Shown: piece by piece, positions 1,860 through 40,230 of the stretch | How positions within the stretch are numbered: position 1 is the stretch's first letter | Layout: each line of letters opens with the position of its first letter | DNA from: Mycolicibacterium sp. | GTDB taxonomy: Bacteria > Actinomycetota > Actinomycetes > Mycobacteriales > Mycobacteriaceae | Assembly (NCBI RefSeq): GCF_020637165.1 | Contig: NZ_JACJWN010000007.1 | Length of the DNA stretch: 64,000 nt | Strand: one strand, 5' to 3' | Notes under the pieces: model-generated | The model's input: the letters and a program-made list of their open reading frames with translations, nothing else | Told to the model about the DNA's origin: nothing | Database searches by the model: none | Position numbers and translations under genes: made by a program

Positions 1860-2450
1860 ATGGAACGGGCCGGCCGCCAGTGGTGTCTATTCGTTGATCG
1901 TGATGGGGTTATCAACCGCCGGATAGCCGGTGACTACGTACGAAGGTGGAGTGACTTTGAATGGCTTCGTCGGGCGCCGCTCGCTTTAGAAAGGCTTAGG
2001 GAATGGGCCCCGCAACTAGTTGTAGTGACGAACCAGCAGGGAATCGGCAAAGGCCTGGTAACACGCAAAGATCTGGAAGATATTCACCAGAAATTGCAAC
2101 TGGAGCTAGCGGAATACGGTGTAAAAATCGATGCGATTCAGGTGTGCCCGCATCTTCAATCTCTGGGGTGCGCCTGCCGAAAGCCGAAGCCGGGGCTTAT
2201 CCTCGACTGGCTGAAACGATGCCCTAACATCGACCAGTCTCTCAGCGTAATGGTGGGAGACAGCCAGAGTGACATCGAGTTAGCACACCAGGTCGCCGCT
2301 GAGACGGGCGGGTGTGCCAGCATCAGGATTGGGCGGTGCACCAGTCGGGGTGCGGCCGCTGACGCATCATTTCAGAGCCTTTGGGAATTCGCGGCTGCAG
2401 TAGAGTGCGCACGGGATGATCAGGGTCATAATCGGGCAGGACTTGACTGA
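1860..2450 (+). CDS. gmhB: D,D-heptose 1,7-bisphosphate phosphatase (HAD-IIIA)
   Basis: DRDGVIN, VTNQQGIG, CPH, CxCRKPKPG and MVGD motifs; follows gmhA; stop codon coincides with an IS-end stub. Confidence 0.85.
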   Translation: MERAGRQWCLFVDRDGVINRRIAGDYVRRWSDFEWLRRAPLALERLREWAPQLVVVTNQQGIGKGLVTRKDLEDIHQKLQLELAEYGVKIDAIQVCPHLQSLGCACRKPKPGLILDWLKRCPNIDQSLSVMVGDSQSDIELAHQVAAETGGCASIRIGRCTSRGAAADASFQSLWEFAAAVECARDDQGHNRAGLD

Positions 2451-2463
2451 ATCGCCTGTAAGT
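2448..2463 (+). mobile_element. Stub: IS3-type IR start (TGAATCGCC) joined to IS110 left-end start (TGTAAGT)
   Basis: Same 16-mer occurs at 17090-17105 and a variant at 17365-17380. Confidence 0.55.
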
Positions 2464-2465
2464 GT

Positions 2466-2581
2466 CCCGACTTTGCTCAAATTAGTGCGCACTGTGTTGT
2501 GGCGGTGGATTTCGGTGAGGGCGTGGGCGAGGTCGTCGGGGATGGGGTCGGCGGCGGTGAGGGTGTGTTCTCCGGTTTGGA
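2466..2581 (-). mobile_element. IS1634-family right-end remnant
   Basis: CCCGACTT end; minus strand reads ..HTLTAADPIPDDLAHAL.., a transposase C-terminus; similar end at 40231. Confidence 0.65.
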
Positions 2582-4338
2582 CCTGACTTAGGACACTTCC
2601 GCGGAATTCCAGAGGCGAAATCGCTCTGAACTTTGCGTTTGTTTGTCGGGCGGGGCGTTTTGGCTTACTAAGCGGGTAGGGTCCGGTGGGTGTTCGTGCG
2701 CAAAGTGCGCACCGCCTCGGGCGCGGTGGCGGTGCAGGTGATGCGCAAGGTAGGCCGCCGTGACGTGCTGGTCGAGCATGTCGGTTCCGCCCATACCGAT
2801 GCTGAGCTGGGGATTCTGTTGGAGCGTGCCCGCCGGATCGCTACCGGCGACCAAGAGGCGCTGGACTTCGAGGTGCCGGCTCGCGTGCAGCGGGTCGCCG
2901 ACGTGGCGGACTGGCGGACCGGCACGTTGACGTTGGCGGCCGGTGTCCCCAAGGGAGCGGTCGTTGCTCCCGGTCGCACCGCGGCCACCAGCTCGCGGCT
3001 GCTCTATGACGTGCTCGGTGCGATCTATGACTGGGTCGGATTCGACTGCGTCGGTGATGCGGTGTTCCGGGACTTGGTGATCGCCCGGATCGTGGAACCC
3101 ACCAGCAAGGTCGACTCCTTGCGGGTGCTGGCCGATCTGGGTGCAGAAGCCATGTCGTACAGAACAATCCAGCGTCACCTGGGCAAGGTCGTCACCGGCA
3201 AGTACCGCGACGTGATCGCCGCACGCTGCTTTGAACACGCCGCAAACCGGGGCGGGTTGAGCCTTCTGCTCTACGACGTCACCACCTTGTACTTCGAGGC
3301 CGAGAACGAAGACGCCCTGCGCAAGGTCGGCTACTCCAAAGAGCGCAGAGTCGACCCGCAGATCGTGGTCGGCCTGCTGGTCGATCGCACCGGATTCCCC
3401 CTGGAAATCGGCTGCTTTGAGGGCAACACCGCCGAGACCACCACCTTGGTGCCGACCATCACCGCCTTCGCCGATCGCCACGACCTGACCGGCACCCCGA
3501 TCGTCGTCGCTGCCGATGCCGGCATGCTCTCGGCGACCAACCTCACCGCCCTGGATGAGGCCGGTCTGGGGTTCATCGTCGGCTCCCGAGCCGTCAAGGC
3601 GCCGATCGATCTGGAACCGCACTTCCATTGGAACGGTGATGTTTTCACCGACGGGCAGATCATTGACACCGTCACACCCCGGCACGCCCGAAGCAAGGTC
3701 AACGACACCGCCCATCGCGCCGAGCCGGTCTGGAACCCCGAGACCGACACAGCTGCGTGGCGGGCGATCTGGGCCTACTCGGCCAAACGCGCCCGGCGCG
3801 ATCAGAAGACCCTCTACGCCCAGGAGACCCGCGCCCGGGAGGTGATCAACGGCGAGCGCACCGTCAAGTCCACCCGCTTCGTCAAAACCCACGCCGGGGA
3901 CCGCGTCTTCGACGAGGCCAGCCTGGCCCGCGCCCAATCCCTGGTCGGGCTGAAGGGCTATGTCACCAACCTGCCGGCCGCCGTCATGCCCGCCACCGAA
4001 GTCATCGCGAAATACCACGACCTCTGGAACGTCGAGAAGTCGTTTCGCATGCCCAAGACCGACCTCGCGGCCCGACCCATGTTCCACCGCACCCGCGACG
4101 CCATCGAAGCCCACCTGATTATTGTGTTCACCGCCCTGGCCGTGGCGCACTGCATCCAGGAACGCAGCGGCCTGGCCATCGCCAACGTTGTCAAACAGCT
4201 GCGGCCCCTGCGGTCAGCGACCATCACGATCAACGGCGCGACCCAGACCTTCCCACCCGACATCGCAGAACCCCAACGGAAAATCCTGGCCGCCCTCGGC
4301 ATCAACATGGCTTACTAAGCCAAATGTCCTAACTCAGG
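2582..4338 (+). mobile_element. IS1634-family (IS1549-like) element, full length
   Basis: IRs CCTGACTTAGGACA / CCTGAGTTAGGACA; no flanking direct repeat seen. Confidence 0.9.
2690..4318 (+). CDS. IS1634-family transposase
   Basis: 542 aa; LYDVTTLYFE, GYSKERR, VADAGMLS, LWNVEKSFR motifs. Confidence 0.9.
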   Translation: MFVRKVRTASGAVAVQVMRKVGRRDVLVEHVGSAHTDAELGILLERARRIATGDQEALDFEVPARVQRVADVADWRTGTLTLAAGVPKGAVVAPGRTAATSSRLLYDVLGAIYDWVGFDCVGDAVFRDLVIARIVEPTSKVDSLRVLADLGAEAMSYRTIQRHLGKVVTGKYRDVIAARCFEHAANRGGLSLLLYDVTTLYFEAENEDALRKVGYSKERRVDPQIVVGLLVDRTGFPLEIGCFEGNTAETTTLVPTITAFADRHDLTGTPIVVAADAGMLSATNLTALDEAGLGFIVGSRAVKAPIDLEPHFHWNGDVFTDGQIIDTVTPRHARSKVNDTAHRAEPVWNPETDTAAWRAIWAYSAKRARRDQKTLYAQETRAREVINGERTVKSTRFVKTHAGDRVFDEASLARAQSLVGLKGYVTNLPAAVMPATEVIAKYHDLWNVEKSFRMPKTDLAARPMFHRTRDAIEAHLIIVFTALAVAHCIQERSGLAIANVVKQLRPLRSATITINGATQTFPPDIAEPQRKILAALGINMAY

Positions 4339-4435
4339 CCATAGGGGCATCCTCTCCTGCCGGGGCATCGCCCAGCCGGTCAGGATGTCCACCAAACGGG
4401 GGTAACCCCAACCTTGGACCAACAACACGGGTACA
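4339..4435 (-). mobile_element. IS left-end remnant (IS3-like)
   Basis: 21-mer TGGACCAACAACACGGGTACA (4415-4435) is identical to 23780-23800, which precedes an IS3 orfA remnant. Confidence 0.5.
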
Positions 4436-4479
4436 GATCTGGTGGAACGAATATCGGGCCCGGTCACATAGTCCATCGG

Positions 4480-5893
4480 GTTCATGTCCCGGGGTGTGGT
4501 GTAAGTAGTGGCGGCGTGTCGGTCGTGATGTGAGAGGGCCATCGCGGGAGTCTCTGTGGTGAAACGACCAAGAATCACTACCGAGAGGAACACCGCGATG
4601 GCCCTGGATCAGTCTGCCTTGTTGGAGGTGCTCGATGCACTGCGCACCGCCGATGCCGGTGAGCGGATCACCCAAGCCTGCGAGGTCGTCTATCAAGCGC
4701 TGATCGACGCCGAGCTGACCGCCAAGATCGGCGCCGCCGCCCATGAGCGCACCCAGACCCGCACCAATCAGCGCAACGGCTCACGGCCGCGCACCTTGTC
4801 CACCGTCGCCGGGGACCTGGAGTTGCGGATCCCCAAGCTGCGCAGCGGGTCGTTCTTCCCGGCGCTGCTCGAGCGGCGCCGCCGGGTCGATCAGTGCCTG
4901 TTCGCGGTGGTGATGGAGGCCTACCTGCATGGCACCTCGACCCGCAAGGTCGACGATCTGGTCAAGGCCCTCGGCGCCGATAGCGGGATCTCCAAGAGCG
5001 AGGTGTCCCGGATCTGCAAGGACCTCGACACCGAGGTCGCCGCCTTCCGCGACCGGCCGCTGGGTGAGCAGCGCTTCCCCTATGTGTTCCTCGATGCCAC
5101 CTACTGCAAGGCCCGGGTCAACCACCGCGTGGTCTCCCAGGCGGTGGTCATCGCCACCGGAGTCGCCGCCGACGGCCGCCGCGAGGTGCTGGGCTTTGAC
5201 GTCGGCGACAGCGAGGACGGGGCGTTCTGGACGGCGTTTCTGCGGTCGCTGAAGTCCCGCGGCCTAACCGGAGTCCAGCTGGTCATCTCCGACGCCCACG
5301 CCGGGCTACGGGCCGCCATCGAGGCCGTGCTGATCGGATCCTCGTGGCAACGATGCCGGGTCCATTTCCTGCGCAACCTGCTGGCCCAGGTCCCCAAGGG
5401 ATCGGCGGAAATGGTGGCCGCGGCGATCCGCACCATCTTCGCCCAACCCGACGCCGAGCACGTCCGGGAACAACTCGACACCATCGCCGGCATGCTCGGG
5501 CGGCAATTCCCCAAAGTCGAAACCATGCTGCGGGAGGCCGCCACCGACATCACCGCCTTCGCCGACTTCCCCGTGCCGCATTGGAAGAAGATCTGGTCGA
5601 CCAATCCCTTGGAGCGGTTGAACAAGGAAATCAAGCGCCGCACCGACGTCGTCGGGGTCTTTCCCAACCCCGCCGCCCTGCTACGCCTGGCCGGCTCGGT
5701 CCTGGTCGAGGCCCACGACGAATGGCAAGTCGCCGACAAACGCTACCTGTCCGAAACCAGCCTCGCTCTACTCCAGATCAGCGACCCCAGCAGCGAAACC
5801 GTTGCCCCCACAACCGCTCTCACGGCATAGTGACAACCACAGAGCCTCACGCGAACACGCGACCGCTCTTACACCACGCCACGGGACGTGACC
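4480..5893 (+). mobile_element. IS256-family element A, copy 1 (1414 bp)
   Basis: Imperfect IRs GTTCATGTCCCGGGGTGTGGTGTAAG / GGTCACGTCCCGTGGCGTGGTGTAAG; identical inverted copy at 27616-29029. Confidence 0.92.
4598..5830 (+). CDS. IS256-family (mutator) transposase
   Basis: YVFLDATY, VISDAHAGL, WQRCRVHF, STNPLERLNKEIKRRT motifs. Confidence 0.92.
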   Translation: MALDQSALLEVLDALRTADAGERITQACEVVYQALIDAELTAKIGAAAHERTQTRTNQRNGSRPRTLSTVAGDLELRIPKLRSGSFFPALLERRRRVDQCLFAVVMEAYLHGTSTRKVDDLVKALGADSGISKSEVSRICKDLDTEVAAFRDRPLGEQRFPYVFLDATYCKARVNHRVVSQAVVIATGVAADGRREVLGFDVGDSEDGAFWTAFLRSLKSRGLTGVQLVISDAHAGLRAAIEAVLIGSSWQRCRVHFLRNLLAQVPKGSAEMVAAAIRTIFAQPDAEHVREQLDTIAGMLGRQFPKVETMLREAATDITAFADFPVPHWKKIWSTNPLERLNKEIKRRTDVVGVFPNPAALLRLAGSVLVEAHDEWQVADKRYLSETSLALLQISDPSSETVAPTTALTA

Positions 5894-5894
5894 G

Positions 5895-6650
5895 TCATCG
5901 GTGCGTCTGACCACCATCGAGCGTCCAGACCTGCCCCGTGGCAAACTTACTCCGTGGCGACGCTAGGTAGGTGACTAAATTAGCAACATCGTCGGGCGAA
6001 CCCAGGGATCTGAGCGACACATCACGTTGCAACATAGCTTCAACAGATTGCTTGTCTTCCGCAAGTCTCCCTGACCACACTGAGCCATCAAACAGAATAT
6101 TTCCTGGAGCAACAGCATTGATCCGCACCCCATCTTTGCCTAATGGACGCGCGATACCGCGGACATAGGCGTGGAGGGCAGCCTTCGCAGCGGAATAGGT
6201 TACAGGTGCCCCATGGATCACCTCAATCCCGCAAATCGAGGAAATGCAGACGATAACACCCCGGCTCGCAACGAGGCTTTCTCTAGCTGCTTCGATAGTA
6301 TTTGTTGCACTCCAGAGGTTCAGGGCGAAGACGCGCTGCCACTCCTCTGGTGTCTCATTCCCCGGCTGGACCGACCGGCCGCTTCCTACGTTGCATACGA
6401 GGACGTCAAGACCCCTGAAGGCGGCGATGGCTTCCGCGACGACGCTTTGCGCTCCTAGCGGTTGGGTAACGTCGCCAGGAATTCCGATGGCGCCTTGCAG
6501 GCGGGAGGCAGATCGCGCGAGATCGTTGGCATTGCGCCCGTTCAGTGCAACGCGGCAGCCTTCAGCGTGCAACACTTCTGCAATCGTCCGACCGATTCCC
6601 TTCGAAGAACCAGTGACTAGGGCCGACTTTCCAGCTAAGTCAAATTTCAT
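5895..6650 (-). CDS. SDR-family oxidoreductase
   Basis: TGSSKGIG, YSAAK and NAVAPG motifs. Confidence 0.88.
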   Translation of the reverse strand: MKFDLAGKSALVTGSSKGIGRTIAEVLHAEGCRVALNGRNANDLARSASRLQGAIGIPGDVTQPLGAQSVVAEAIAAFRGLDVLVCNVGSGRSVQPGNETPEEWQRVFALNLWSATNTIEAARESLVASRGVIVCISSICGIEVIHGAPVTYSAAKAALHAYVRGIARPLGKDGVRINAVAPGNILFDGSVWSGRLAEDKQSVEAMLQRDVSLRSLGSPDDVANLVTYLASPRSKFATGQVWTLDGGQTHR

Positions 6651-6695
6651 AGCGCTTGGGCCGGAGCGAGTAAGATATCAATGATTGGCCTGCAG

Positions 6696-7544
6696 TCATT
6701 CCGTTACTCCCAAACCGGATTGGCTTATCCAGCCCCTGGTCATCTCGTAGTAGCTGCCCAACACACCCGCATGGTCCGCATCCACTGCCCGAGCCGTTTG
6801 TAATATGAAGTTTCCTCGGTAATTCACGTTGGCCAGTTGTTCGAATACTAATTCGAATTGCGCGGCGCCAGTTTTCAGCGGAACGGTCGTCCCGCCTAAC
6901 ATCCTGTCTTTCACATGCACATTCAGTACCCGGGTTCCGTAGGCCGCGAATTCCGCAACTGGGTCAAACCCAAGCGCAGCGCTGTTACCGATATCGTAAT
7001 TGACCCCAAATTGTTCGATTGGTAGGCGTTCAATTAACCGCCCCAATTCTTCTGGCCCGTAATCTGACTCCAAGATCACCTGGATATTTTGCTCCGCGAA
7101 CAGTTGTTGTTGAGACAAAAGGAACTCCACCAGTTCGTCTTCTTGTGCCGTATTATCTAGGCTTCCGCAGTCAACCAATGGCACTACCACCAACCGCACG
7201 CCCATTAATGAGCAGGCGTTGCAGACAGCCAGAAAATCTGCCTTGCGGTTAGCCGCGACTTCCCAAGTGTCCTTCCAGAATGGCGCCTGCATGAAGCAGT
7301 CTCCGGTGAGCGACGGAATAGCGATCGGATATTCGACCTGGAGGCCATGGATTCGTGCCCTGCCTTCAGCCGTCATGAGAGGATTCTTGAGCAAGCATTC
7401 CTGATCCAGCGTCCATTCCATGGCGTGGATCCCAAGCGCCGTTGCGGCAGGGAATTCTTCTTCCCACGCACGCCACGGAAAGGCTTGGATTTTGCCCCCG
7501 ACCTGGTCGCAAAGACGGCCTTGCATGAATCCGATCTGATGCAT
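6696..7544 (-). CDS. Sugar-phosphate isomerase/epimerase, xylose-isomerase-like TIM barrel
   Basis: IGFMQGRL, NYDIGN, VHVKD; ATG at 7544 overlaps the upstream TGA (ATGA coupling). Confidence 0.8.
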   Translation of the reverse strand: MHQIGFMQGRLCDQVGGKIQAFPWRAWEEEFPAATALGIHAMEWTLDQECLLKNPLMTAEGRARIHGLQVEYPIAIPSLTGDCFMQAPFWKDTWEVAANRKADFLAVCNACSLMGVRLVVVPLVDCGSLDNTAQEDELVEFLLSQQQLFAEQNIQVILESDYGPEELGRLIERLPIEQFGVNYDIGNSAALGFDPVAEFAAYGTRVLNVHVKDRMLGGTTVPLKTGAAQFELVFEQLANVNYRGNFILQTARAVDADHAGVLGSYYEMTRGWISQSGLGVTE

Positions 7545-8521
7545 CACTTGCTCTTGAAGCGATACGGGGTTGGAGCATCGCGAGAGTCGGAACCAACCCG
7601 TTCTCTGTCCCACCGCTTGATCTGGCTGGCGATGTCGACGCCGGTGTTCTCGCTCCACTGACTCAAAAGGCGGTTGAATTCATCGCCCACATTTCCGGTA
7701 CCGATGGCAATTCCGTTGAGTGAGGTCACCGGCAGCATGCAGAACGGCGTGCCCGTCATAAAGGCCTCGTCGGCCGTGTAGACATCGTAGGCGTCGATAT
7801 TCCTCTCCACAACCGGCATGCCCGATTGCGGACCTAGTTCCTTGATTACATACTCGCGAGAGATACCGCGGAGTATGTTGCGCCCCTCGGGCGTGATAAC
7901 AACACCGTCCTTGACGATAAAGAAGTTGTCGCCGCTGCCTTCGGCGATGAAGCCTTCAGGGTCCAAGAGCAGCGCCCAGTTGTTGTCGCCTTTAGCCTGA
8001 CCAGCTTCAATGTTCGCCATCAGGTAGTGAATGCGGCTGCGGTTCTTAATCTTCGGATCAAGCAGATAACTGGGAATGGCACGCTGTGAGGTGATAACTG
8101 CGTTGATACCTTCATCGAACAGTGTGCCCATGGTAGCCACAGTCCAGCGTAGCGGAAAATCCGCGATAATCACATTAGGCCCCTTGTGCAAGCCTTCTAT
8201 TCCCTGATAGATCCCAAGAAGGCCGCGGGATACGTCGATCATCAGGCGGTGCTCGTCATCTTCCCGGAACAGGTGATCGTTAGCCTCTATAGTCTCGTAG
8301 CAGGCCAGTTCCATCTCACCAGGCGTCATTTGCAGTGGAATGCGCAGTATTTTCAACCCGGCATAGAGGCGGTCGATGTGTTCGCGCAGCTTGAACTGGT
8401 TTTTGTTGAAAGACCGGGTCATTTCGAAAACCATGTCCCCGAACATCAGCGCCGAATCGTATACGGAAATTTTTGCTTCCGTCTCCGGAATCAACTCACC
8501 GTTGAAGTAGATCTTGCGCAT
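7544..8521 (-). CDS. PLP-dependent aminotransferase class IV (fold type IV)
   Basis: KISVYDSALMFGDMVFE, FIAEGSGDNFF, ILRGISR, ADEAFMTGT. Confidence 0.88.
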   Translation of the reverse strand: MRKIYFNGELIPETEAKISVYDSALMFGDMVFEMTRSFNKNQFKLREHIDRLYAGLKILRIPLQMTPGEMELACYETIEANDHLFREDDEHRLMIDVSRGLLGIYQGIEGLHKGPNVIIADFPLRWTVATMGTLFDEGINAVITSQRAIPSYLLDPKIKNRSRIHYLMANIEAGQAKGDNNWALLLDPEGFIAEGSGDNFFIVKDGVVITPEGRNILRGISREYVIKELGPQSGMPVVERNIDAYDVYTADEAFMTGTPFCMLPVTSLNGIAIGTGNVGDEFNRLLSQWSENTGVDIASQIKRWDRERVGSDSRDAPTPYRFKSK

Positions 8522-9277
8522 TTAGTACGTCTCTCGGTTTCTAGATTTTTTGTACACATCGTCGTACCACCGGATCGTATCGGTGATATGGAATTCAGGA
8601 TTGCGAGGATAGAGGTATTCGTAGAGCGCGCGCATGAACTCGTACTGCGCAGGTGTATTGACGTCCAAAACCAGGTCCGGCCGGCGGAAGCCCTCTGGGC
8701 ATCTAACCGTACTTACCGGGCACCAGTCCGCATCCACGGGCCGGCCTGCGCTGTAGTCGAAGAAGTTCAAGTGGACGTGTTCCCGCTGACGGGGATCGTT
8801 GTGCCGAACGCGCGCCTCCGCAAGGAGTGAGAAGTCGAACATTTCGGCTCCGATCCCGTCCGGGTATTCGGAGTCGCCTATCTGCGACAAGTTCGATGAA
8901 AACCCACGTCTCCCGAGGGACAGATGGAAGTCAACAATGCGGTCAATTTCGCCAGGTTCGGGTGTCGCATTATCCGCCGGCAGGCGCCCGACTACGTCCG
9001 CGTTTGAAAAGAGTGCGGCCTGATAATAGCGTTCGACTAAGTCGTTTTCCGAGCCGGCAAAGACCTTCACGCCGTAGTTAACGCCTAATTCCACCAACAC
9101 CCGATTCGCCTCAGTGTCGGGCACTGCCAGTACAATGTCGTCCAGATGGGCACATCGCTTCACGCGTTCGAGAATCCGGCCGACCAAGGGGGCGCCAGCA
9201 AGATCCATCATAGATTTGCCCGGTAGCCGGTGCGAATCCATCCGTGCCTGAACAATCAACACAACACGAGGCCTCAC
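8522..9277 (-). CDS. SpsF-like cytidylyltransferase (CTP_transf_3 / CMP-ulosonate synthetase fold)
   Basis: IVQARMDSHRLPGKSM, GSENDLVERY, RLPADN. Confidence 0.8.
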   Translation of the reverse strand: MRPRVVLIVQARMDSHRLPGKSMMDLAGAPLVGRILERVKRCAHLDDIVLAVPDTEANRVLVELGVNYGVKVFAGSENDLVERYYQAALFSNADVVGRLPADNATPEPGEIDRIVDFHLSLGRRGFSSNLSQIGDSEYPDGIGAEMFDFSLLAEARVRHNDPRQREHVHLNFFDYSAGRPVDADWCPVSTVRCPEGFRRPDLVLDVNTPAQYEFMRALYEYLYPRNPEFHITDTIRWYDDVYKKSRNRETY

Positions 9278-9420
9278 TTACTGCCCCTAGGAGAAGCCGC
9301 AAGTGGGTTCATCAGAGCTAGTGCAAACATGATGGAGCGCTCCTCAACCTTTGCGTTTCAATGTAGCTTATGCGCAAACGGTGGGGCTATTGAACCACCC
9401 CGGCTTTCATGCACACTCGG

Positions 9421-10385
9421 TTACTGGTGTGCCTCCGTCTTGGTGGCCGCTTGCTGAGTGTAGTAGCGGGCCTCGAACTCCACTGGGGGTGTGCGGTCGA
9501 GGCGGTGCATGATCCTGCTGGTGTTGTACCAGTGGACCCATTCGGCGGTGAGCAGCTCGACGTCGGCCAGCCTGTTGAGCGGACCCCGTCGAAACGGTGA
9601 GTCCGCGCGGACGGCTTCGGTCTTGTACAGACCGATCGTGGTCTCGGCCAGGGCGTTGTCGTAGGCGTCCCCGAGCGAGCCGATGGAGGGCTTGAGGCCG
9701 GCAATCAGCAGGGCCTCGGCGCACTTCACCGCAGTGTATTGACTGCCCGCATCGCTGTGGTGAATAGTGCTGCCCGTCAACGGTTTTCCCTCGCGAAACC
9801 GGCTTGCGGCGGCGTGGCGGATCGCACGCTCAACGAACCCGACATGCTTGGCTGCCGAGCATTCCCAGCCCACGATCCGCCCGGCGAAGGCGTCGATGAC
9901 GAACGCAGTGTAGACGAAGCTCCCGCACGTCAGCCTGACGTAGGTGAAGTCGGCCACGACCAGCATGTTGGGGGCGGGCACCCGGAACTGGCGGTCCTCC
10001 AGGTCCGGCGGGCGCACCGCATCCGGATCGGCGATCGTGGTGCGGACCCGCTTGGTCCGGGTGACCCCCTGCCGGCCGTTGGCCCGCATCAACCTCTCCA
10101 CGGTGCAGCGGGCCACCTCGATGCCCTGTCGCTGCAGGTAGGCCTACATCTTGGTGGCCCCGTACAGCGACTCGGGCTTGCGGCGGCCGTCCCGTCAGGT
10201 TCGTAGTAGCCGGCCAGGATCTCGGTGATGGCGGTGTCCCACAGTTCCCGTTTCGACGGGGCCCGGTGGCGGCCAGGCGTAATAGGTTCTCGGAGCGATC
10301 GTGCACCCGTGTTCAGACAGGGTGCGGCAGATCGGAGCGACTCCGAAACGAGCGCGGTGCTCATCGATGAACCCGCAGATCAACG
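9421..10385 (-). pseudogene. IS3-A orfB integrase, disrupted
   Basis: VADFTYV, HSDAGSQY, NALAET; in-frame stop (YGATKM*AYLQ) near 10145 plus frameshifts. Confidence 0.75.
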
Positions 10386-10398
10386 CAGTCGCGGGTCG

Positions 10399-12624
10399 GT
10401 GAAAGTCGGCCCGGGACGCGGTGACAACTGTTGGGTTGTTCCGTTTTCCCGGGCCGCTTCCCGAACCCGGCGTGCACCTTTCAATGCACCGGGCTCTCCA
10501 CAAGACCCGGTCAGGCTGCTGTTGTGGTGGCATCCTCATCGGCGAGTGGCCAGGGTGAGGGGATGACCGATCCGCGGTAGCGGTATCGGGTGGTGCCGAT
10601 CTTCGTGAGGTCGATCAGCACGTGGTCCTCGGTGGCTGGCCACCAACCGCCGCCGCAGTAGCGGTGGCGCAACTGTGTCCGGGTCGCCTTGCGGTGTTTA
10701 CGGAGCATCCGTCGCCATACCGTCTGCCACGCGTAGTGACTCAGGTAGGAGAAGGTCGCCGAGGACACCCCGGCCCGGAAATAGCCCGCCCAGCCCCGCA
10801 GCGTCGAATTGATCCGGCGCAACAGGTCATCGAGCGGTTGATTGGGTTCGACTGCTCGGCCCAACGCCTTGATCTTCCGTTTGACCGCCAGCACGGCCTT
10901 GGTACTCGGATAGACGTAGACGTAGTGGCGGCTGGTGCCTTTCTTGCGGTGACGCTGGATGCGCCACCCGAGGAAGTCCAGCCCCTCGTCGATGTGGGTG
11001 ATCAGGGTCTTCTCCGGTGACAGAGCAAGACCCATCGTCGCCAGCACGGCGGCGATGCCCTCTCGTAGTGCTTCGGCGTGGGCGTGAGTGCCCCGCACCA
11101 TCAGACACCAGTCATCGGCGTAACGGACAAGCCGAAAATTCGGCTGCCCACGACGAAGTCGTCTGGCGCGCTCGTAGATGCCGGTCTCCGGGCCACCCGG
11201 CAAACCAGCGATGTACTCATCGAGCGCCGACAACGCCACATTGGCCAACAACGGCGAGAGGATTCCACCCTGCGGAGTTCCCGCGGTACTGTCCTCCAGC
11301 AGGCCCGCCTCGGTGAGGATGCCCGCCTTCAGGAACGCCTTGACCAGACCCAGCACGCGGTTGTCCCCGACGCGACGACGCACCCGGCCCATCAGGGCGG
11401 TGTGGTCGATCTCGTCGAAGCAGGCCTTGATGTCGCCCTCGACGACCCAGTCATAACACCTGGGACGCGTCGCGAGGTAACGCACCTCGGCCACCGCATC
11501 ATGAGCCCGGCGATTCGGGCGGAAACCGTAGGAACACGGCAGGAAATCCGCCTCGAAGATCGGCTCCAGCACCAACTTCAGCGATGCCTGGACCACCCGG
11601 TCGGCCACGGTTGGAATCCCCAAACGGCGCAGCTTGCCGCCGCTTTTGGGGATCATCCGCTCGCGGACCGGCAACGGCCGGAAACTGCGGCCCTTCAGCT
11701 GCGACCGCAGCTCGTCGAGGAACGCCTCGACGCCCTGCCCGGCAACGATGGACGACGCGGTGCGCCGATCCACCCCCGCCGTGGCGGCACCGCTGTTCCC
11801 GCTCACCCGATCCCACGCCACCAGAAGGAAGGCGGGATCGGCGACGAGGTTGAACAGATCGTCGAACCTGCGATGAGGATCATCGACAGCCCAACGGTGC
11901 AGCTTGGTCTGGATCTTCAGTACCCGTTGGCGCGCCATCATCAGCGCGACCTCGAGTTCGTCGGTATTCACCGGCGACATCACACTCCTCCTGACCTTCC
12001 AGTTCTTCTGCTGCATGTCTTGCTGACCCCCTTGGCCCTGTGACCGCCTTTCTCGGTCTCCGCGGCGGGCACGTCACCGCCCGCGACTACTACGGGGTCT
12101 CCGCCCCACCCGATAGCGGTCCCTATCAACTCCGAACGCTTGAGTCTTCTCATCCCTCCCGGCTGGATACCGGGCCGGACGAACGGTCTCGCCAAGGTGG
12201 TTCCCACGTTCACCAGGTCATCGGTCGGTCAGGGAGGCACCCAGCTCTACTCCGGCAGCGTCGCCACGGCTACGCCGCAGGCCTTCACCGCGGCCTCCTC
12301 ACCGCTGGAGAAAGACGGCTTCGGAGTCGACACCCCATCCGGGGTGCCGTGCACTGCACACCGGCCCATATCCACCAGGTTGGAGCCGGCTTCGCGGTTA
12401 CGGAGCTTCTACCACTGGTTCGCTTGCGCTGTACCTTTTGACCTCGCTCGACGAGCTCGCACCGTCTGGCAGTCCCAGCACGACTCGCCTTCTCGGGGCC
12501 GCTTGCCACCAATCGCCGTCGTTCCCGACAATCGGCTGCCCCGACGCTTCATCAGGCCGCTGCGACGGCCCAACGGAGATGGTCTCTCACCACCTCCCGA
12601 TACACCCAGCGCCTCGTGGCGCAC
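10399..12624 (-). mobile_element. Group II intron, copy 1 (2226 nt)
   Basis: 5' GTGCG, 3' ..CCGACTTTCAC, domain V GAGCCCGGTGC..GAAA..GCACGCCGGGTTC; removing it restores FFARESDPRLR. Confidence 0.92.
10511..12016 (-). CDS. ltrA: Group II intron reverse transcriptase/maturase, no HNH domain seen
   Basis: RRLGIPT, SYGFRP, GTPQGG, YADD, DFLG; alternative start at 11980. Confidence 0.92.
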   Translation of the reverse strand: MQQKNWKVRRSVMSPVNTDELEVALMMARQRVLKIQTKLHRWAVDDPHRRFDDLFNLVADPAFLLVAWDRVSGNSGAATAGVDRRTASSIVAGQGVEAFLDELRSQLKGRSFRPLPVRERMIPKSGGKLRRLGIPTVADRVVQASLKLVLEPIFEADFLPCSYGFRPNRRAHDAVAEVRYLATRPRCYDWVVEGDIKACFDEIDHTALMGRVRRRVGDNRVLGLVKAFLKAGILTEAGLLEDSTAGTPQGGILSPLLANVALSALDEYIAGLPGGPETGIYERARRLRRGQPNFRLVRYADDWCLMVRGTHAHAEALREGIAAVLATMGLALSPEKTLITHIDEGLDFLGWRIQRHRKKGTSRHYVYVYPSTKAVLAVKRKIKALGRAVEPNQPLDDLLRRINSTLRGWAGYFRAGVSSATFSYLSHYAWQTVWRRMLRKHRKATRTQLRHRYCGGGWWPATEDHVLIDLTKIGTTRYRYRGSVIPSPWPLADEDATTTAA

Positions 12625-12968
12625 CTCTCCCGCGCGAAGAAACTTGTTGCCGCCTTGAGGATTTCGATGGTCTGCTCAAGCTTGCGGTTCTTCTTTCGAA
12701 GCTCCCGCAACTCCTTGCTTTCCCCGGTCGACAGCCCGGGGGCCTGGCCGCTGTCGACCTCGTCCTGACGGACCCATTTGCGCAGGGTCTCCACGTTCAT
12801 CCCCAACCGCGCGGAGATGACCTTCATCGCCGCCCACTCGGTGTCGTACTCATCGCGATGCTCCCGAACCAACCGGACCGCCTTGGCCCTGATCTCCAGG
12901 GTGTATTCGCTTGGCATCGTGCCATCCTTCCCGCAAAAGAAGGTGTGCATGAAGGCCGCGGTGGTTCA

Positions 12969-13120
12969 AGTTCTGGTACGACTCGTCGTTGTCAGGGCCG
13001 CTGTCCACCCTCACCCCCATCCCGGGGATCGGGCTGCCCTCAGCTTCAACCCGCTGCTGCGACAACGGGAACGTGGTGGTCTCTCACCCCCACTCGGTCA
13101 AACAGCGCCTCGCGGCGCAC
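12969..13120 (-). mobile_element. 5' fragment of a second, different group II intron
   Basis: Begins GTGCGCCGCGAGGCGCTG; shares colinear blocks with the 5' end of intron 1; interrupts an IS3 orfB after WVADL. Confidence 0.75.
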
Positions 13121-13899
13121 CAGATCGGCAACCCAGAGCAGGTTGGGCGCGGGTGCGTGGAACTGGCGGTTGACCAGATCGGCCGGCCGCTGATCGGCCG
13201 GGTCGGTCACGGTGGTGAACACCGGCTTTCCCCGATGAACGCCCCGTAGCCCGGCTTTGCGCATCAACCTGCGGGTTTGTTCGCGACCCAGCTGCCAGCC
13301 CCGCCGGGGCATCGCCACGTGCATCTTCTTGACCCCGTAGACCGAGAAGTTCTTCTCGTGGACGGTGCGCAGCTCGGCGATCAGCTGTTCATCGCGGATC
13401 TCCCGGTCACTGGCCGGACGGGTCCGGGCGGCGCGGTAGCCCCGGGAGGTGAGAAAGCCAGGGATTGCTGCCCGCAAAATCCGGCAGATGAGCTCGACCC
13501 CGAACTGATCGCGATGCATGTCGATGAACGCGATCATTTCGTCGCGGGGCGGTCGAGCTCCGCTGCGAAAAACGCAGACGCAGACTTCAAAATCTCATTC
13601 GCTCTGCGTAGTTCGGCGACCTCCCGCTTCAGGCGCCGAATCTCGGCGTGCTCCACGCTGGTCATTCCGGGCCGCTCGCCGGCATCGACTTGAGCTTTAC
13701 GCCGCCACCGGCGCACCGATTCCTCCGAGACACCCAGTTTGCTGGCCACGGACTTGATGGCCTCGAACTCCGAAGTTTCCGAGGACTCCATCATCGTGTC
13801 CAACAACCGCAACGCACGCTGCCGGAACTCCGGCGAATACTGACGGGGCATAGTTCCTGATCCTCCTATACGGATCGGAACGAAACCTGGGGTAGTTCA
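13121..13899 (-). mobile_element. IS3-family element B, left part
   Basis: IR TGAACTACCCCAGG; orfA 13534-13851 (MPRQYSPEF); orfB truncated. Confidence 0.88.
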
Positions 13900-13998
13900 C
13901 AAAGAGCCCGGATGGTGGAGAGCCCGAATGATACTGTCGCGTCCACTGGCGACCCCTGAACCAACGGTCGGCCAGGGCTCTTTAGGGAGGACCAGGAC

Positions 13999-14898
13999 AT
14001 GGCAGTCTCAAAACCTTATTTGGAGACCAATTCACTGAAAATCGGGGAAGGAGTCGAATTCGGAACCAACGTTTCCATCACTGCCGATTCAGTAGAAATC
14101 GGAGATCGAGTGCTTCTTCGGAACGACATTCGTATCAACTGCCGTGGAAAACTGAGAATTGGTCATCACAGCATTCTTGGATCAGACGCGCGACTTCAGT
14201 GCAATAACTTAATCATTGGTAGTTGGCTTTACTCCTGCGATGGACTGGAGATCGGTTCCGGTGGATGCAACAGCAAAGAGTCGGACGTTACGATTGGCGA
14301 TCGCGTTGGAATCTTCGAGAGGGTTTTGATAAATCCGAATCATAAGGTCTCAATTGGTGACAATTGCGGGATTGGACGAGAAGTGCAGATTTGGACTCAC
14401 GGCGCTTGGCTTGACCCGCTTGCGGGGTTCCCCTCAGACTTCGGTCCGGTCTCAATCGGAAGCAACGTATGGCTTCCAGCGCGTTGTGTAGTGCTACCGA
14501 ATGTTCTCATCGGTGATAATTGTGTCATTGGGATTAACTCCATCGTCAACAAGTCAATTCCGTCGGGATCGTTCGCCGCGGGATGTCCGGCAAAAATACT
14601 CAAGTCGGACGCCTACCCTCTCGAAAGATCGGCTGATGAAGCAAATATGATAATACGAGGAATCGTCCGCGACTGGGAGACACAAATACGTTTCAAAAGA
14701 CCCAGTCTTAACTACTCGATTCGCGTGATTAATGACAAGGTAATCGTTCTACTTGCAGCAGGTGCTGAAACCATCTTTAACTGCGACCTTAAGACTGTTT
14801 CCGGAGAGACCACCGATGTCTCAGAGGATTTTCGGGACTATCTGCGGCGCAGAGGCATCAAAATATATACGGATAACTTTTTCGAGTCTATTAAATAG
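13999..14898 (+). CDS. Hexapeptide-repeat (LbetaH) acyltransferase
   Basis: Repeated IG.. hexapeptides, VSIGSNVWL, IGINSIVNKSIP; GGAGG upstream. Confidence 0.85.
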   Translation: MAVSKPYLETNSLKIGEGVEFGTNVSITADSVEIGDRVLLRNDIRINCRGKLRIGHHSILGSDARLQCNNLIIGSWLYSCDGLEIGSGGCNSKESDVTIGDRVGIFERVLINPNHKVSIGDNCGIGREVQIWTHGAWLDPLAGFPSDFGPVSIGSNVWLPARCVVLPNVLIGDNCVIGINSIVNKSIPSGSFAAGCPAKILKSDAYPLERSADEANMIIRGIVRDWETQIRFKRPSLNYSIRVINDKVIVLLAAGAETIFNCDLKTVSGETTDVSEDFRDYLRRRGIKIYTDNFFESIK

Positions 14899-14941
14899 TC
14901 ATTTTCGAGTCTATTAAATAGTCATAGTAGTAAATAGTCAT
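14880..14941. repeat. AT-rich tandem repeat, 2 x 23 bp plus a partial third copy
   Basis: TTTCGAGTCTATTAAATAGTCAT at 14880 and 14903; TAAATAGTCAT at 14931. Confidence 0.85.
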
Positions 14942-14981
14942 AGAAGCGTATCGCAATTAAAACAGTTAGGGTCGTATAGCC

Positions 14982-15617
14982 GTGGAAAAGTTCCTCAATC
15001 TCAGTAGGGCTCTATGCCTCTCTCCTCATCCAGATGATGTCGAATACAGCATGGGCGGGACCGCTCGGAAATATGGCGGAACATTCTTCGATGTTGTTTG
15101 TCTGTCCCGTGGTGGCGACCGCGATCGAACGGCCGGGGAAGAACGCATAGAGGAGGTAAAGGCGTTCTGGACCGCGAATAGTTGCGACAACGTCGCCGTG
15201 CATTTTCCGGAGATTGGGCACGTCAAAGATTTGAGTGATGATTTGTGGGTAAACCTACTCGAAACGCGGTATTTGCAGAACCAGAACTACGATGTAATTT
15301 TCACGCCATCGGCGTCGGACAGCCATTTCGAGCACCGAATAGCGAACAGGCTAGGGCCACCGCTCTCTCGACTGGAGAAGATTGCGATTGTGGAGTATTG
15401 CTCCCCGTCCACTCTAGATGATTGGATTCCAAACCTATTCGTCGACATCCACGACGAGTTCGAGCACAAACTCCAAGCGCTGGGTGAATTCAAGTCGCAA
15501 ATTTGCCGAAAGTACTTCAGCGAAACCACTATCCGTAACTTCAACACCAATTTCAGGTGTTCGAAGCGTGGAGTGCACTATGTCGAACAATTTAAAATAA
15601 AACAAATCTATGAGTAA
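14982..15617 (+). CDS. PIG-L/LmbE-family deacetylase
   Basis: SPHPDDVE and DSHFEH metal-binding motifs. Confidence 0.82.
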   Translation: MEKFLNLSRALCLSPHPDDVEYSMGGTARKYGGTFFDVVCLSRGGDRDRTAGEERIEEVKAFWTANSCDNVAVHFPEIGHVKDLSDDLWVNLLETRYLQNQNYDVIFTPSASDSHFEHRIANRLGPPLSRLEKIAIVEYCSPSTLDDWIPNLFVDIHDEFEHKLQALGEFKSQICRKYFSETTIRNFNTNFRCSKRGVHYVEQFKIKQIYE

Positions 15618-15644
15618 TGCGGATCGGTGTTCAGTGCACTCTCG

Positions 15645-17012
15645 CTATAAGCCTGACGCGTTTGGCGCGCCCAGCCTGAAGACTTTCGGTGAGGGGACCT
15701 GGATAGCTCTACGTGTGTCGACAACCATCTGCGCAGAATCAAGAACGGCTTCGTAATCCACAGTCGAGTGGTTGGCTAGTATAACCACACAATCCGCTCC
15801 CGCTAGCTCTTCGGGAGTGCATCTAACGGAGTCCATGTCTGCGTTCCCACCCAAATCCGCAGCTGCTATCTTAGGTACAAAAGGGTCATGGTAGGTAACT
15901 TTGCCACCCAATCTCAGAAGTTTACCGATGACGTCCAACGCGGGCGACTCGCGTATGTCGTTCACGTCGGCTTTGTAGGCGACGCCGAGCACAAGGACTT
16001 TTGAACCCCTAACAGCTTTCTGCTGGGAATTGAGGGCTTCCGTGACCTTGCCGACGACGTGGCTCGGCATGGAACTATTGAGCTGGCCAGCAAGCTCGAT
16101 CAAACGAGCTTCTAATCCGAATTCCCGCACTTTCCAGGAAAGATAGAACGGATCAACAGGTATGCAATGCCCACCGAGCCCCGGCCCCGGATAGAACGCC
16201 ATGAATCCAGCTGGCTTGGTTGCGGCGGCGTCAATCACCTCCCAAACGTCGATGTCCAAATGTTCGCACATCAGCGCCATTTCATTTGCAAGTCCGATGT
16301 TGACTGCGCGGAACGTATTTTCGAGCAGTTTCGCCATTTCTGCGGCACGAGTTGAGCTTACGGGAACCACTCGGTCGATTGATGTGGCTTTGTAGAGTTC
16401 AGCTGCCAGTGCGGAGCACTCCTCGGTTAACCCTCCGACCACCCTCGGTCTCCGCACTGAATCGGGGAGACCGGGATCGATGCGTTCAGGGGAGTAGGAC
16501 AAGAAAAAATCGACGCCGGCCTCCATGCCCGTTTCCTCAAGGATTCCGCGTAGCACCTCGTCCGTTGTACCGGGATATGTGGTTGATTCGAGAACTACGA
16601 GCATACCCGGACGCAGTATGGACTTTGCCGTACGGCCAGCAGCGATCACATAGGACAAATCAGGTTCTTTCGCGCTGCGAAGCGGCGTCGGCACACATAT
16701 GCTCACGGCATCGAGGTCATTGATTTGATCAAGGCCAGAGGCTGGGACAGCCCTGAAACGCCCCTTTGTCACCAGTTCTTTCAGTACGTCAGCTGGCACG
16801 TAGTCGATGTGCGATTCGCCACGGTTGATTCCGTCGCATTTTGTCCGATCGACGTCGATCCCAGTAACATTGAATCCCGCACAGCCGAGTTCAACTGCTA
16901 GTGGGAGGCCGACGTAGCCCAAGCCAATGACGCCGACGCGAGCAGTGCGGTTACAAAATTTTCGGTAGAGATTGGTTGCGAGTTGACTCGATAACCGCGG
17001 AATGTCTGACAT
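15645..17012 (-). CDS. Nucleotide-sugar (UDP-HexNAc) 6-dehydrogenase, WbpA/WecC-like
   Basis: GLGYVGLP, CVPTP, ESTTYPGTT, PGPGLGGHCIPVDP; ORF is open from 17063. Confidence 0.9.
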   Translation of the reverse strand: MSDIPRLSSQLATNLYRKFCNRTARVGVIGLGYVGLPLAVELGCAGFNVTGIDVDRTKCDGINRGESHIDYVPADVLKELVTKGRFRAVPASGLDQINDLDAVSICVPTPLRSAKEPDLSYVIAAGRTAKSILRPGMLVVLESTTYPGTTDEVLRGILEETGMEAGVDFFLSYSPERIDPGLPDSVRRPRVVGGLTEECSALAAELYKATSIDRVVPVSSTRAAEMAKLLENTFRAVNIGLANEMALMCEHLDIDVWEVIDAAATKPAGFMAFYPGPGLGGHCIPVDPFYLSWKVREFGLEARLIELAGQLNSSMPSHVVGKVTEALNSQQKAVRGSKVLVLGVAYKADVNDIRESPALDVIGKLLRLGGKVTYHDPFVPKIAAADLGGNADMDSVRCTPEELAGADCVVILANHSTVDYEAVLDSAQMVVDTRRAIQVPSPKVFRLGAPNASGL

Positions 17013-17098
17013 CGTTGCGCCCCAGTTGACAAATTTGATTATTCGACGTTGGTTTCGGATCAATCATAGCGCCAACATTTTTTCCTGACTGAATCGCC

Positions 17099-17224
17099 TG
17101 TAAGTCTTTACGCGGCTGGCCCGGTGCTGGCTGACAGGATCGGTGTCGCCGTCCTGGCTGAGTGTGACTCATGGATCGCCTGGCCCCCGCGAGGGTGCTG
17201 TTCCCCGGATCTGTCCACTTGGCG
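17099..17224 (+). mobile_element. IS110 left-end non-coding remnant, diverged copy
   Basis: Colinear with 17374-17500 (TGTAAGTCTTTA..GCTGGCTGACAGGATCGGTGTCGCCGTC..GATCTGTCCAC). Confidence 0.75.
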
Positions 17225-17364
17225 TAGCTGTCGTGACCTGACAGGTTGTTGACGGCGTGCCTGCTTGAAATGGGGAGGACCTCCTGACGGAGTGGATGTG
17301 TCTGGCATTCACACCGAAGGAGGTCCTCGTGTCTCACGCTAACGCCCGTACCTACCTGTTCGCT
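17225..17364 (+). mobile_element. IS481-family left-end fragment
   Basis: GTCGTGACCTGACAGG end, GGAGG RBS, then VSHANAR, a typical IS481 N-terminus. Confidence 0.65.
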
Positions 17365-17403
17365 TGAACCGCCTGTAAGTCTTTAGGTTGCTGGCTCGGT
17401 GCT

Positions 17404-17600
17404 GGCTGACAGGATCGGTGTCGCCGTCTTTGTTGGGTGTGACTCGTGAATCGCCCGGCGCCCGCGAGGGGTGCTCTTCCCGGGATCTGTCCACCTGGCG
17501 GGGGCGGCGGCGCCGGCCCGGTCTTGCTTCGGTGGCTTGATGAGAAGCCTGCCCGACTCGTTGCCGCGAGTCGTGGCCCGTTACAGGCCTGCCCCGTAGT
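17404..17600 (+). ncRNA. Predicted IS110 bridge RNA (5' stem, target-binding loop, donor-binding loop)
   Basis: Stems 17436-43/17489-95 and 17554-60/17567-73; guide-like TGAATCGCC (17447), TGAGAAGCC (17541), TTACAGG (17581); boundaries approximate. Confidence 0.65.
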
Positions 17601-17659
17601 GCTTTCCTCCGGGCTGACGCCGCCGACGACGTCGTCTACAGGAAGGAACTCACGTCGCC

Positions 17660-18510: not shown

Positions 18511-18728
18511 TGAACTACCCCAGGTTTCGTTCCTAGTTGGTTGCGAGGGCCGGGGTTGGCTGGCTCGCGGGGTGTGAGGCGCCGGTGAGGGTGATGGCGC
18601 TCACTGAAAATCCCCACTGACGCTCGCTGAAATTCCCCACCCGTGTGGCTCCGCCGAGAAGGGCGGGCCTCCTTCGATGCTTCTGGTGTCTGACGCCAGT
18701 TGCTTCGTTGAAGGAGGCCCGCTTTCTC

Positions 18729-24865: not shown

Positions 24866-25346
24866 CGAAACTCCCTCAGTCGCTTTCGGCGATTGACTAA
24901 ACTCGACTCTATAGCGCCGAATCCGCGGCGTCCAAATCCTCACCTCTTCATGGGGCCGACCGGTCAGGTGCACAGTTCACGCGCTGGCCCGATCCCTCAC
25001 TGTGAACCACCGTGGCTTTCATGCACACCTTCTTTTGCGGGAAGGATGGCACGATGCCAAGCGAATACACCCTGGAGATCAGGGCCAAGGCGGTCCGGTT
25101 GGTTCGGGAGCATCGCGATGAGTACGACACCGAGTGGGCGGCGATGAAGGTCATCTCCGCGCGGTTGGGGATGAACGTGGAGACCCTGCGCAAATGGGTC
25201 CGTCAGGACGAGGTCGACAGCGGCCAGGCCCCCGGGCTGTCGACCGGGGAAAGCAAGGAGTTGCGGGAGCTTCGAAAGAAGAACCGCAAGCTTGAGCAGA
25301 CCATCGAAATCCTCAAGGCGGCAACAAGTTTCTTCGCGCGGGAGAG

Positions 25347-27572: not shown

Positions 27573-27615
27573 CGACCCGCGACTGCGTTGATCTGCGGGT
27601 TCATCGATGAGCACC

Positions 27616-40146: not shown

Positions 40147-40230
40147 TTTCGATCCACGTGTGTCACGAACGCTGAAGGGGGCGTGATTTTGGCCGTCGCT
40201 GCGGGTGCGGTTGATGGAGTCATCATGGAT

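Follow-up and report, generated by a model that had tools for sequence, protein, structure and literature searches.

Relics of an IS110-group insertion sequence with a putative bridge RNA for the tips of IS3-family terminal inverted repeats in a Mycolicibacterium genome

RNA-guided targeting by elements of the IS110 family of insertion sequences (IS) was established in 2024. Members of this family have also been described that integrate into the ends of other mobile elements: IS1383 of Pseudomonas putida H is cited as integrating specifically in the inverted repeats of IS1384 (Muller, Lauf & Herrmann 2001; ref 13 of PMC11208160), and IS4321 and IS5075 are cited as targeting the 38-bp terminal repeats of Tn21-family transposons (Partridge & Hall 2003; ref 1 of PMC11187229). 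ISEc21 is described as targeting a conserved stretch inside IS3-family transposase genes and as having an upstream non-coding region (PMC11187229). The DNA analyzed here, a 64,000-nucleotide (nt) window of contig NZ_JACJWN010000007.1 from Mycolicibacterium sp. (assembly GCF_020637165.1), contains three truncated IS110 copies. With a probability of about 85%, these represent relics of an actinobacterial IS110-group IS whose bridge RNA directs it to the tips of IS3-family terminal inverted repeats.

An earlier note on this window had claimed three IS110 left junctions at base 9 of an IS3-type repeat. The 16-mer in question, TGAAYCGCCTGTAAGT (TGAAYCGCC followed by the IS110 start TGTAAGT), occurs exactly three times in the window, at 2448, 17090 and 17365, always on the plus strand, against a chance expectation of 0.02; three occurrences were reached in none of 100 shuffles, and the sequences 3' of TGTAAGT are unlike each other. 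The claim holds, and relatives of the element show the IS3 repeat split at this point. Because the window keeps no right junction, the insertion-site test was performed on copies from other genomes and from metagenomes. A genome scan with the transposase yielded near-identical full copies (L001, 97%; L002, 90%; and L003), a protein search yielded many relatives at 64–95%, whose contigs were fetched, and a metagenome scan with the conserved right end added 34 further loci, bringing the total of right ends read to 72. A megablast comparison of the IS110 element with PLSDB plasmids gave no match.

Comparison of these copies provides evidence for insertion into IS3 repeats. First, the 9 nt before TGTAAGT read TGAANCNYC in all 20 unrelated upstream contexts, with T1, G2, A3, A4, C6 and C9 invariant, and the DNA beyond this 9-mer is unrelated among the 20. 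Second, the right flanks, which follow ...ATATAGAAGCAT, start with CC(C/T)GG and go on with the rest of an IS3-type repeat. They fall into 29 classes, 22 of which have at least 250 nt of flank; in 13 of these 22 an IS3-family transposase homologue lies within tens of nt, in either orientation, so that left and right IS3 repeats are both hit, and several other classes have repeat sequence in common with those 13 or with the IS3 ends of the window. IS3-family elements are marked by a repeat that starts with TGA and by two genes, orfA (HTH) and orfB (rve), linked through -1 frameshifting. Genes of the HTH_Tnp_1, HTH_21 and rve types lie directly inside the split repeat at related loci. IS3 orfA or orfB stands directly beside IS110 in Mycolicibacterium hassiacum and in metagenome contigs, including one order of IS110, IS3 and IS110 in which both IS110 copies point to the IS3; one IS3 of M. 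hassiacum has such an inward-facing copy at each of its ends. Third, copies were collected and their empty sites reconstructed, and two of these sites equal intact IS3 repeats. L001 has the left flank TGAACCACC and the right flank CCCGGCTTTCATGCACAC, and its intact counterpart, TGAACCACCCCGGCTTTCATGCACAC, is found at 9391–9416 of the window, with the next 110 nt matching too. The occupied M. hassiacum-type IS3 reads TGAATCGCC before and CCTTGGTTTG after the IS110 element, and in L085, where this IS3 has a free end, that end reads TGAATCGCCCTTGGTTTG. For these two different IS3s the intact repeat is the left flank plus the right flank minus one C, and every reconstructable case has the repeat divided after nt 9 and before nt 10. 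When the left flank TGAACCGCC is joined to several metagenomic right flanks (CCCGGTGAGTCCGGAGACT, CCCGGCATTTCCGGAGACTC), the published IS6110 repeats TGAACCGCCCCGGTGAGTCCGGAGACTC and TGAACCGCCCCGGCATGTCCGGAGACTC result (PMC5896891); IS6110 repeats begin TGAACCGCCCCGG in the same source, as the earlier note had stated.

These flanks bear on two other explanations of the junctions. If the 9-mer TGAAYCGCC were IS110's own left terminus, travelling with the element, nothing would be targeted, and both the presence of the 9-mer at every copy and a near-copy inside the left end at 17447 would follow. However, the 9-mer differs among near-identical copies (TGAACCACC, TGAACCGCC, TGAATCTCC, TGAATCGCC) while the adjoining IS110 sequence is constant, the L001 9-mer belongs to the repeat of the IS3 whose remainder sits at the right junction, and intact IS3 repeats contain the 9-mer with no IS110 nearby, which leaves this explanation scarcely credible. 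The reverse causality, a preference of IS3-family elements for inserting beside IS110 ends, would account for the adjacency of IS3 and IS110 in many loci, and an IS3 did enter an IS110 transposase gene at 18511. Such an insertion would leave the IS3 repeat whole, but the IS110 divides the repeat, 9 nt lying beyond it and the remainder on its near side, and the position of the split is constant over unrelated IS3 subfamilies; this order of events is extremely improbable as well. Targeting of the IS3 repeat tip by IS110 is the preferred reading.

The recombinase and the layout of the element place it among the bridge-RNA systems. The open reading frame (ORF) at 17660–18510 matches both PF01548 (N-terminal DEDD RuvC-like) and PF02371 (C-terminal Tnp). 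The full-length L001 protein reaches 176.7 bits with NF033542, which is the NCBIfam model 'IS110 family RNA-guided transposase' (cut-off 140), and is homologous to the IS621 transposase structure 8wt6 (E = 9e-12), with ASSG opposite the YESG of IS621. The element spans ~1.37 kb, made up of 286 nt of non-coding left end, the gene for a DEDD/Ser recombinase of 353 aa and a short right end finishing ...TTGACANNATATAGAAGCAT; its ends, TGTAAGT... and ...GAAGCAT, are not inverted repeats. Members of the IS1111 group are described as having 11–13 bp sub-terminal inverted repeats and a non-coding RNA region downstream of the transposase (PMC11187229). Here the non-coding region is upstream (286 nt, versus ~20 nt downstream) and sub-terminal repeats are absent. 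On sequence grounds, the element is a member of the IS110 group of the IS110 family, that of the bridge-RNA recombinases. In a predicted circle junction the right-end TTGACA would lie 17 nt from the left-end TAAGTC, with a weak -10 match; junction promoters are among the features reported for other IS110-family members (PMC11187229).

Judged by its fold and covariation, the left end probably encodes a bridge RNA with the canonical anatomy described for IS621 (PMC11208160, PMC11208158). Left ends of the mycobacterial clade and its 40–53% relatives (Arthrobacter, Nocardioides, Geodermatophilaceae, Micromonospora, Pseudonocardia), 25 in all, were aligned and gave an RNAalifold consensus of 41 pairs, 15 of them with compensatory changes. 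In this consensus a 5' hairpin is accompanied by two loops, one for target binding, which GTGAC/GTCC closes, and one for donor binding, whose inner stem covaries well; the single-sequence fold has the same two loops (z = -2.2). Pairing of the right donor guide with the start of the left end covaries (G-C 18, A-U 7; alignment columns 4/235). The left donor guide is TAGAAGCCT in most lineages, and its ungapped alignment to the right-end tip TAGAAGCAT is better than one with a 2-nt gap.

The target guides covary with the flanks. The left target guide, 10 nt at a fixed place after GTGACYCN, matches the lineage's own left flank plus T at a mean of 8.8/10 positions, against 4.2/10 for the flanks of other lineages (26 lineages). 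Within the IS3-targeting clade, the left guide TGAAACGT goes with the flank TGAAACGT and the left guide TGAACCGY with the flank TGAACCGY; for the right guide CCAGG, 8 of 10 lineage rows show CCTGG repeats (7 of the 9 read to 8 nt), and for CCGGG all seven show CCCG repeats. More distant relatives have other guides at other targets, the left target being AAAAACAA-CT in the Arthrobacter group, GAAGAAGGA-CT in one Geodermatophilus element and ..CTGA-CT in other relatives (Geodermatophilaceae, Micromonospora), which argues for a CT donor core and a programmable guide. The guide assignment of the earlier note holds as well: TGAATCGCC at 17447 is the left and TTCCCGG at 17477/8 the right target guide, and each covaries with the flanks across lineages. 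The reverse complement of the latter with its handshake, ATCCCGGGAA, is made up of the last two right-end bases, the core CC and CGGGAA. An alternative is that the recombinase protein itself recognizes the IS3 repeat tip and that the similarity between left end and target is incidental, a view to which the imperfect guide-target match lends itself. It is quite unlikely, although less so than the two explanations above, because the guides covary with the flanks over 26 lineages and at least four unrelated target classes as well as within the clade, and because the architecture is that of the experimentally proven IS621 bridge RNA (PMC11208160, PMC11208158).

Several observations weigh against an RNA-guided element specialized on IS3 ends. 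About 7 of the 29 right-flank classes (e.g. L002, L081/L088/L136, L127 and L133) run into ordinary genes with no recognized IS3, and no partner inverted repeat was found downstream of the unassigned right flanks of L002 and L081; flanks of this kind may be solo repeats, decayed elements or off-target look-alike sites. In the window, only 9 nt of each presumed IS3 repeat are left, and these sites are called IS3 by analogy with relatives. Guide and target match at 6–8 of 8 positions on the left and 4–7 of 8 on the right, the poorest match being that of M. hassiacum (CCCGGGTA versus CCTTGGTT and CCCATGGT). The core reads CT where the left end joins the flank but CC at the right junction, unlike the uniform CT of IS621. 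Intact repeats have CC at nt 9–10 and the occupied state carries exactly one extra C, which would fit a CT donor core recombining with this CC. In Rfam, neither the left end (E-value mode) nor the entire window (gathering mode) matched a bridge-RNA family, which leaves architecture and covariation as the sole grounds for calling the RNA. Neither transcript ends nor a circle junction came to light, and circle-junction reads were absent from the contig-level run data.

A mechanism can be proposed from the observed anatomy, split repeats, fixed position and orientation, and guide-flank covariation; RNA guidance in vivo, a circular intermediate and loss of IS3 activity are the parts of it that we infer. 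The left end would encode a bridge RNA with a target-binding and a donor-binding loop. In the target loop, the left guide (TGAATCGC plus CC in copy B, the third of the window's IS110 copies) would have the same sense as repeat nt 1–10, and the right guide (TTCCCGGG, plus an AT handshake) would be complementary to repeat nt 9–16 (CC+CGGGAA). In the donor loop, TGAGAAGCCT of copy B (or TAGAAGCCT elsewhere) would match the right-end tip, and GTTACAG+GC would be complementary to the left junction GC-CT-GTAAC/G. Recombination between an excised circle (core CT) and an IS3 repeat (core CC, nt 9–10) would then insert the element after repeat nt 9 and before nt 10, in a single constant orientation in which the transposase gene points into the IS3, at either repeat or at both; the predicted target of the recombinase and left-end RNA is TGAAYCGCCCCGG... 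IS3 transposases cleave at the TG tip, within the first 9 nt of the repeat, and a split should therefore inactivate the end. The cleaved TG tip would be set ~1.4 kb from the rest of the repeat, and IS110 would gain a multicopy, gene-free landing site. The earlier note had proposed an RNA-guided element that inserts into and disables IS3 ends; targeting is borne out by the split repeats and the covariation, and disabling stays a prediction.

Some of the related loci have been reshuffled or stacked. L081, L082 and L088, from M. hassiacum and related contigs, combine one left flank with different right flanks and vice versa, which indicates rearrangement by recombination between IS110 copies. The L091/L092/L094 lineage has the right guide TTGCCGGG at a site reading TGAATCGCC on the left and CCCGCCATGGTTGGGG on the right of the element; in its flank an IS30-like gene comes after a remnant resembling IS3 orfB (tblastn E = 9e-14), and the locus is probably another nested stack.

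All three IS110 copies in the window are dead relics (Table 1). At the first site, the HAD-phosphatase (gmhB-like) ORF that lies upstream, at 1773–2450, ends on the TGA of the 9-mer at 2448, which doubles as its stop codon. The 27-nt block that cuts off this remnant is assigned to an IS1634-family terminus because the same 27 nt recur at 40230–40256, immediately behind the C-terminal coding end and stop codon of a minus-strand IS1634-like transposase. The other two sites form one nest, which runs from the UDP-glucose dehydrogenase gene (15645–17063, minus strand) through a 9-nt IS3 tip, IS110 copy A (126 nt), an IS481 fragment (140 nt), a second 9-nt IS3 tip, IS110 copy B (1137 nt) and an IS3 fragment (81 nt) to an IS21-like element, which cuts the IS3 fragment in turn from 18592 on. 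Copy A is 87.5% identical to copy B in an alignment ending after ~126 nt, and 87–92% identical to the left ends of L001, L002, L003, L092 and the M. hassiacum loci; the transposase of copy B is 97% identical to that of L001. A diverged portion of copy A or the start of its transposase was considered for 17225–17364 and ruled out by a plasmid search, in which these 140 nt have 93–96% identity to annotated IS481-family copies on plasmids of M. chubuense NBB4 and Mycobacterium sp. SMC-4. The homology ends exactly at 17364, where an intact IS481 continues with CGTCGC and the window with TGAACCGCC and TGTAAGT, so the 9-mer at 17365 is not IS481 sequence. Neither the missing C-terminal third of the transposase (regex and tblastn) nor an IS110 right end (ATATAGAAGCAT) was found in the window, and none of the three copies keeps a right junction.

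Table 1. Features of the IS110 sites and IS3-family ends in the window (positions in nt)
Feature	Position	Strand	Remarks
Outer 9 nt of IS3-type terminal inverted repeat, TGAATCGCC	2448–2456	+	Same as left flank of 9/20 independent clade insertions
IS110 left end, first 7 nt (TGTAAGT) only, remainder gone	2457–2463	+	2464 is G; IS110 left end has C
IS1634-family element, terminal 27 nt, cutting off IS110 remnant	2465–2491	-	Same 27 nt at 40230–40256
Intact unoccupied IS3 repeat TGAACCACCCCGGCTTTCATGCACAC	9391–9416	+	Same IS3 end occupied by IS110 in L001
Outer 9 nt of IS3-type repeat, TGAATCGCC	17090–17098	+	26 nt upstream of UDP-glucose dehydrogenase start
IS110 copy A, left-end nt 1–126 only	17099–17224	+	5' stem-loop and target-binding loop
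Left target guide, copy A	17172–17181		TGGATCGCCT
Right target guide and handshake, copy A	17201–17210		TTCCCCGGAT
IS481-family left end, cuts copy A, itself cut	17225–17364	+	Repeat from ~17229; Shine-Dalgarno and GTG start 17330; 12 codons
Outer 9 nt of another IS3-type repeat, TGAACCGCC	17365–17373	+	Identical to first 9 nt of IS6110 repeats
IS110 copy B, complete left end, putative bridge RNA gene, 286 nt non-coding	17374–17659	+	Guide and fold analysis
Left target guide, copy B	17447–17456	+	TGAATCGCCC; repeat nt 1–10, same sense
Right target guide and handshake, copy B	17477–17486	+	TTCCCGGGAT; reverse complement ATCCCGGGAA
Left donor guide, copy B	17541–17550	+	TGAGAAGCCT; matches right-end tip TAGAAGCAT
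Donor-loop stem, copy B	17552–17576	+	
Right donor guide and handshake, copy B	17580–17588	+	GTTACAGGC; reverse complement GCCTGTAAC equals left junction
IS110 copy B transposase, codons 1–283 of 353, truncated	17660–18510	+	PF01548 and PF02371; catalytic Ser motif ASSG
IS3-family element, first 81 nt (TGAACTACCCCAGG...)	18511–18591	+	Inside IS110-B transposase gene; identical 81 nt at 31912, 35950
Second intact unoccupied AC-type IS3 repeat	33408–33433	-	Copy of repeat at 44755–44780
Intact unoccupied IS3 repeat TGAATCGCACTGGTTCC...	44755–44780	+	AC not CC at repeat nt 9–10

Sequencing runs X1–X20 were compared over positions 16900–18700 of the window. Logan contigs from three independent wastewater and activated-sludge runs span the junctions 17085/86, 17224/25 and 17364/65, so the nesting is not an assembly artefact. 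In untruncated IS110 copies from the same communities, the sequence left loose behind 18510 goes on with CAATCGCGGTGGTGATCGG, as in L001. The window sequence is present in activated-sludge and wastewater metagenomes, and one metatranscriptome contig has the IS110 transposase gene without the IS3 interruption, with DNA carry-over possible.

The number of insertion events may be smaller than the number of sites. The same 20 nt, TGACTGAATCGCCTGTAAGT, occur at 2444 and again at 17086, bracketing 2464–17085. They include the four bases upstream of the 9-mers at 2448 and 17090, TGAC, whose sharing the earlier note had correctly pointed out; no two of the 20 other contexts share that 4-mer, and a single ancestral junction for 2448 and 17090 is favored for this reason. 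There would then have been two IS110 insertions only, with the 20-nt direct repeat arising from a later rearrangement, perhaps a long target duplication of the IS1634 type. The repeat at 2444–2463 abuts the IS1634-family terminus, and IS1634 and IS1549 are among the elements reported to make long target duplications, of 8–514 bp (PMC2266710). The copy at 17086, however, is undisturbed on both sides, with no IS1634 repeat at 17085, and independent insertions into IS3 copies with the same repeat would share 16 of the 20 nt anyway. A count of two is rather probable on this evidence. As the origin of the 20-nt repeat, a simple IS1634-type target duplication fails to account for the lack of a terminal repeat at 17085. 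Of the three junctions first claimed, all stand as sites and probably two as independent events; the window records two, possibly three, IS110 insertions within a nested IS stack.

IS3-family ends elsewhere in the window had been said to begin TGAACCACC, TGAACTACC and TGAATCGCA, and all three proved to be ends of such elements: TGAACCACC at 9391 and 12968 (minus strand), TGAACTACC at 18511, 31912 and 35950, and TGAATCGCA at 44755 and 33433 (minus strand). The body of the 18511-type element encodes an OrfB (NF033516, 276.6 bits) and an ALIL frameshift pseudoknot, and its insertion into the transposase gene of copy B means that IS3 and IS110 have disrupted each other at this locus. The ALIL pseudoknot (Rfam RF01497) occurs three times, at 13459–13576, 23066–23183 and 32782–32899 (minus strand), marking three copies of the TGAACTACC-ended IS3. 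The AC-type ends read TGAATCGC-AC-TGGTTCC, and the occupied relatives L119 and L141 read ...CC-TGGTTC; with AC at the crossover position, these ends might have escaped the IS110, or the difference may be mere natural variation.

Other elements crowd the same stretch. The IS3-family element at 9391–12968, with intact 26–27-nt repeats, carries a group II intron, recognized by a reverse transcriptase/maturase ORF (10511–12016, minus strand) and an Rfam Intron_gpII match (10399–10498); a second, inverted copy of its inner part lies at 24999–27616 and is 99.9% identical. An IS256-family element (Transposase_mut, 455.8 bits; 24-nt terminal repeats) is present in two inverted, 100%-identical copies at 4480–5894 and 27615–29029. 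What appears to be one sugar or heptose-type glycan biosynthesis cluster is split by the IS nest into pieces at 1241–2450, 5895–9277 and 13999–17063, which encode SIS/GmhA-like, HAD/GmhB-like, SDR and xylose-isomerase-like TIM barrel proteins, a class IV aminotransferase, a cytidylyltransferase, a hexapeptide transferase, a PIG-L deacetylase and UDP-glucose dehydrogenase. Two neighboring 53-nt repeats, 89% identical and 66 nt apart, lie at 37629–37747.

A broader proposal, held at about even odds, is that this clade is widespread in Mycobacterium and other Actinomycetota and specialized on the IS3 repeat tip, including that of the IS6110 type, with guide loops diversifying along with IS3 subfamilies, and that it forms a natural RNA-guided transposon-against-transposon system that caps IS3 ends. 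Such capping, if real, may select escape variants such as the AC-core repeats that stand unoccupied in the window. It could also help to explain IS3 copy-number control and the IS-rich 'graveyards' of environmental mycobacteria. With its dozens of independent insertions, the clade documents well how a bridge-RNA element can be directed in nature at the functional end of another transposon, and guide-target covariation is visible inside one clade. Its targets include the IS6110-type repeat (TGAACCGCCCCGG...), the end of the main mobile element and typing marker of the Mycobacterium tuberculosis complex, and the element would thus be a ready-made natural recombinase-guide pair for that repeat. 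The apparent acceptance in nature of mismatched guides, and of a CC target core with a CT donor core, bears on the off-target rules of bridge recombinases.

In the literature searched, neither this actinobacterial clade nor IS3 or IS6110 repeat tips as an IS110 target were described. IS1383, as cited, resembles the element in being an IS110-family member aimed at the inverted repeats of another IS, and differs in host phylum and target IS; the 2001 work predates bridge RNAs and, in its cited form, holds no guide-target analysis to compare. IS4321 and IS5075, as cited, share a fixed position and orientation in the terminal repeat of another element, with presumed inactivation of that end. They are placed in the IS1111 group, with sub-terminal repeats and a downstream RNA region, in contrast to the long upstream non-coding end and the lack of sub-terminal repeats seen here, and their target is a Tn3-family transposon rather than an IS3. 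ISEc21, as described in PMC11187229, is also an IS110-group element with an upstream non-coding guide RNA and a natural target within IS3-family elements, but that target lies inside the transposase genes, whereas nt 1–16 of the terminal repeat are targeted here. The likeness to IS621 extends to a homologous recombinase, a putative left-end RNA with target- and donor-binding loops, a predicted CT donor core, a same-sense left guide, an antisense right guide, and handshake dinucleotides beside the right guides. IS621 differs in its natural target, repetitive extragenic palindromic (REP) sequences instead of IS3 repeats, in a left target segment of 7 nt rather than 8, and in a uniform CT core as opposed to the CC target core and the CT and CC junctions here; sequence identity between the two is low, and no Rfam model was matched. 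IS110 elements that target the inverted repeats of other elements have been known since 2001, and this clade adds a clear new example rather than a new mechanism.

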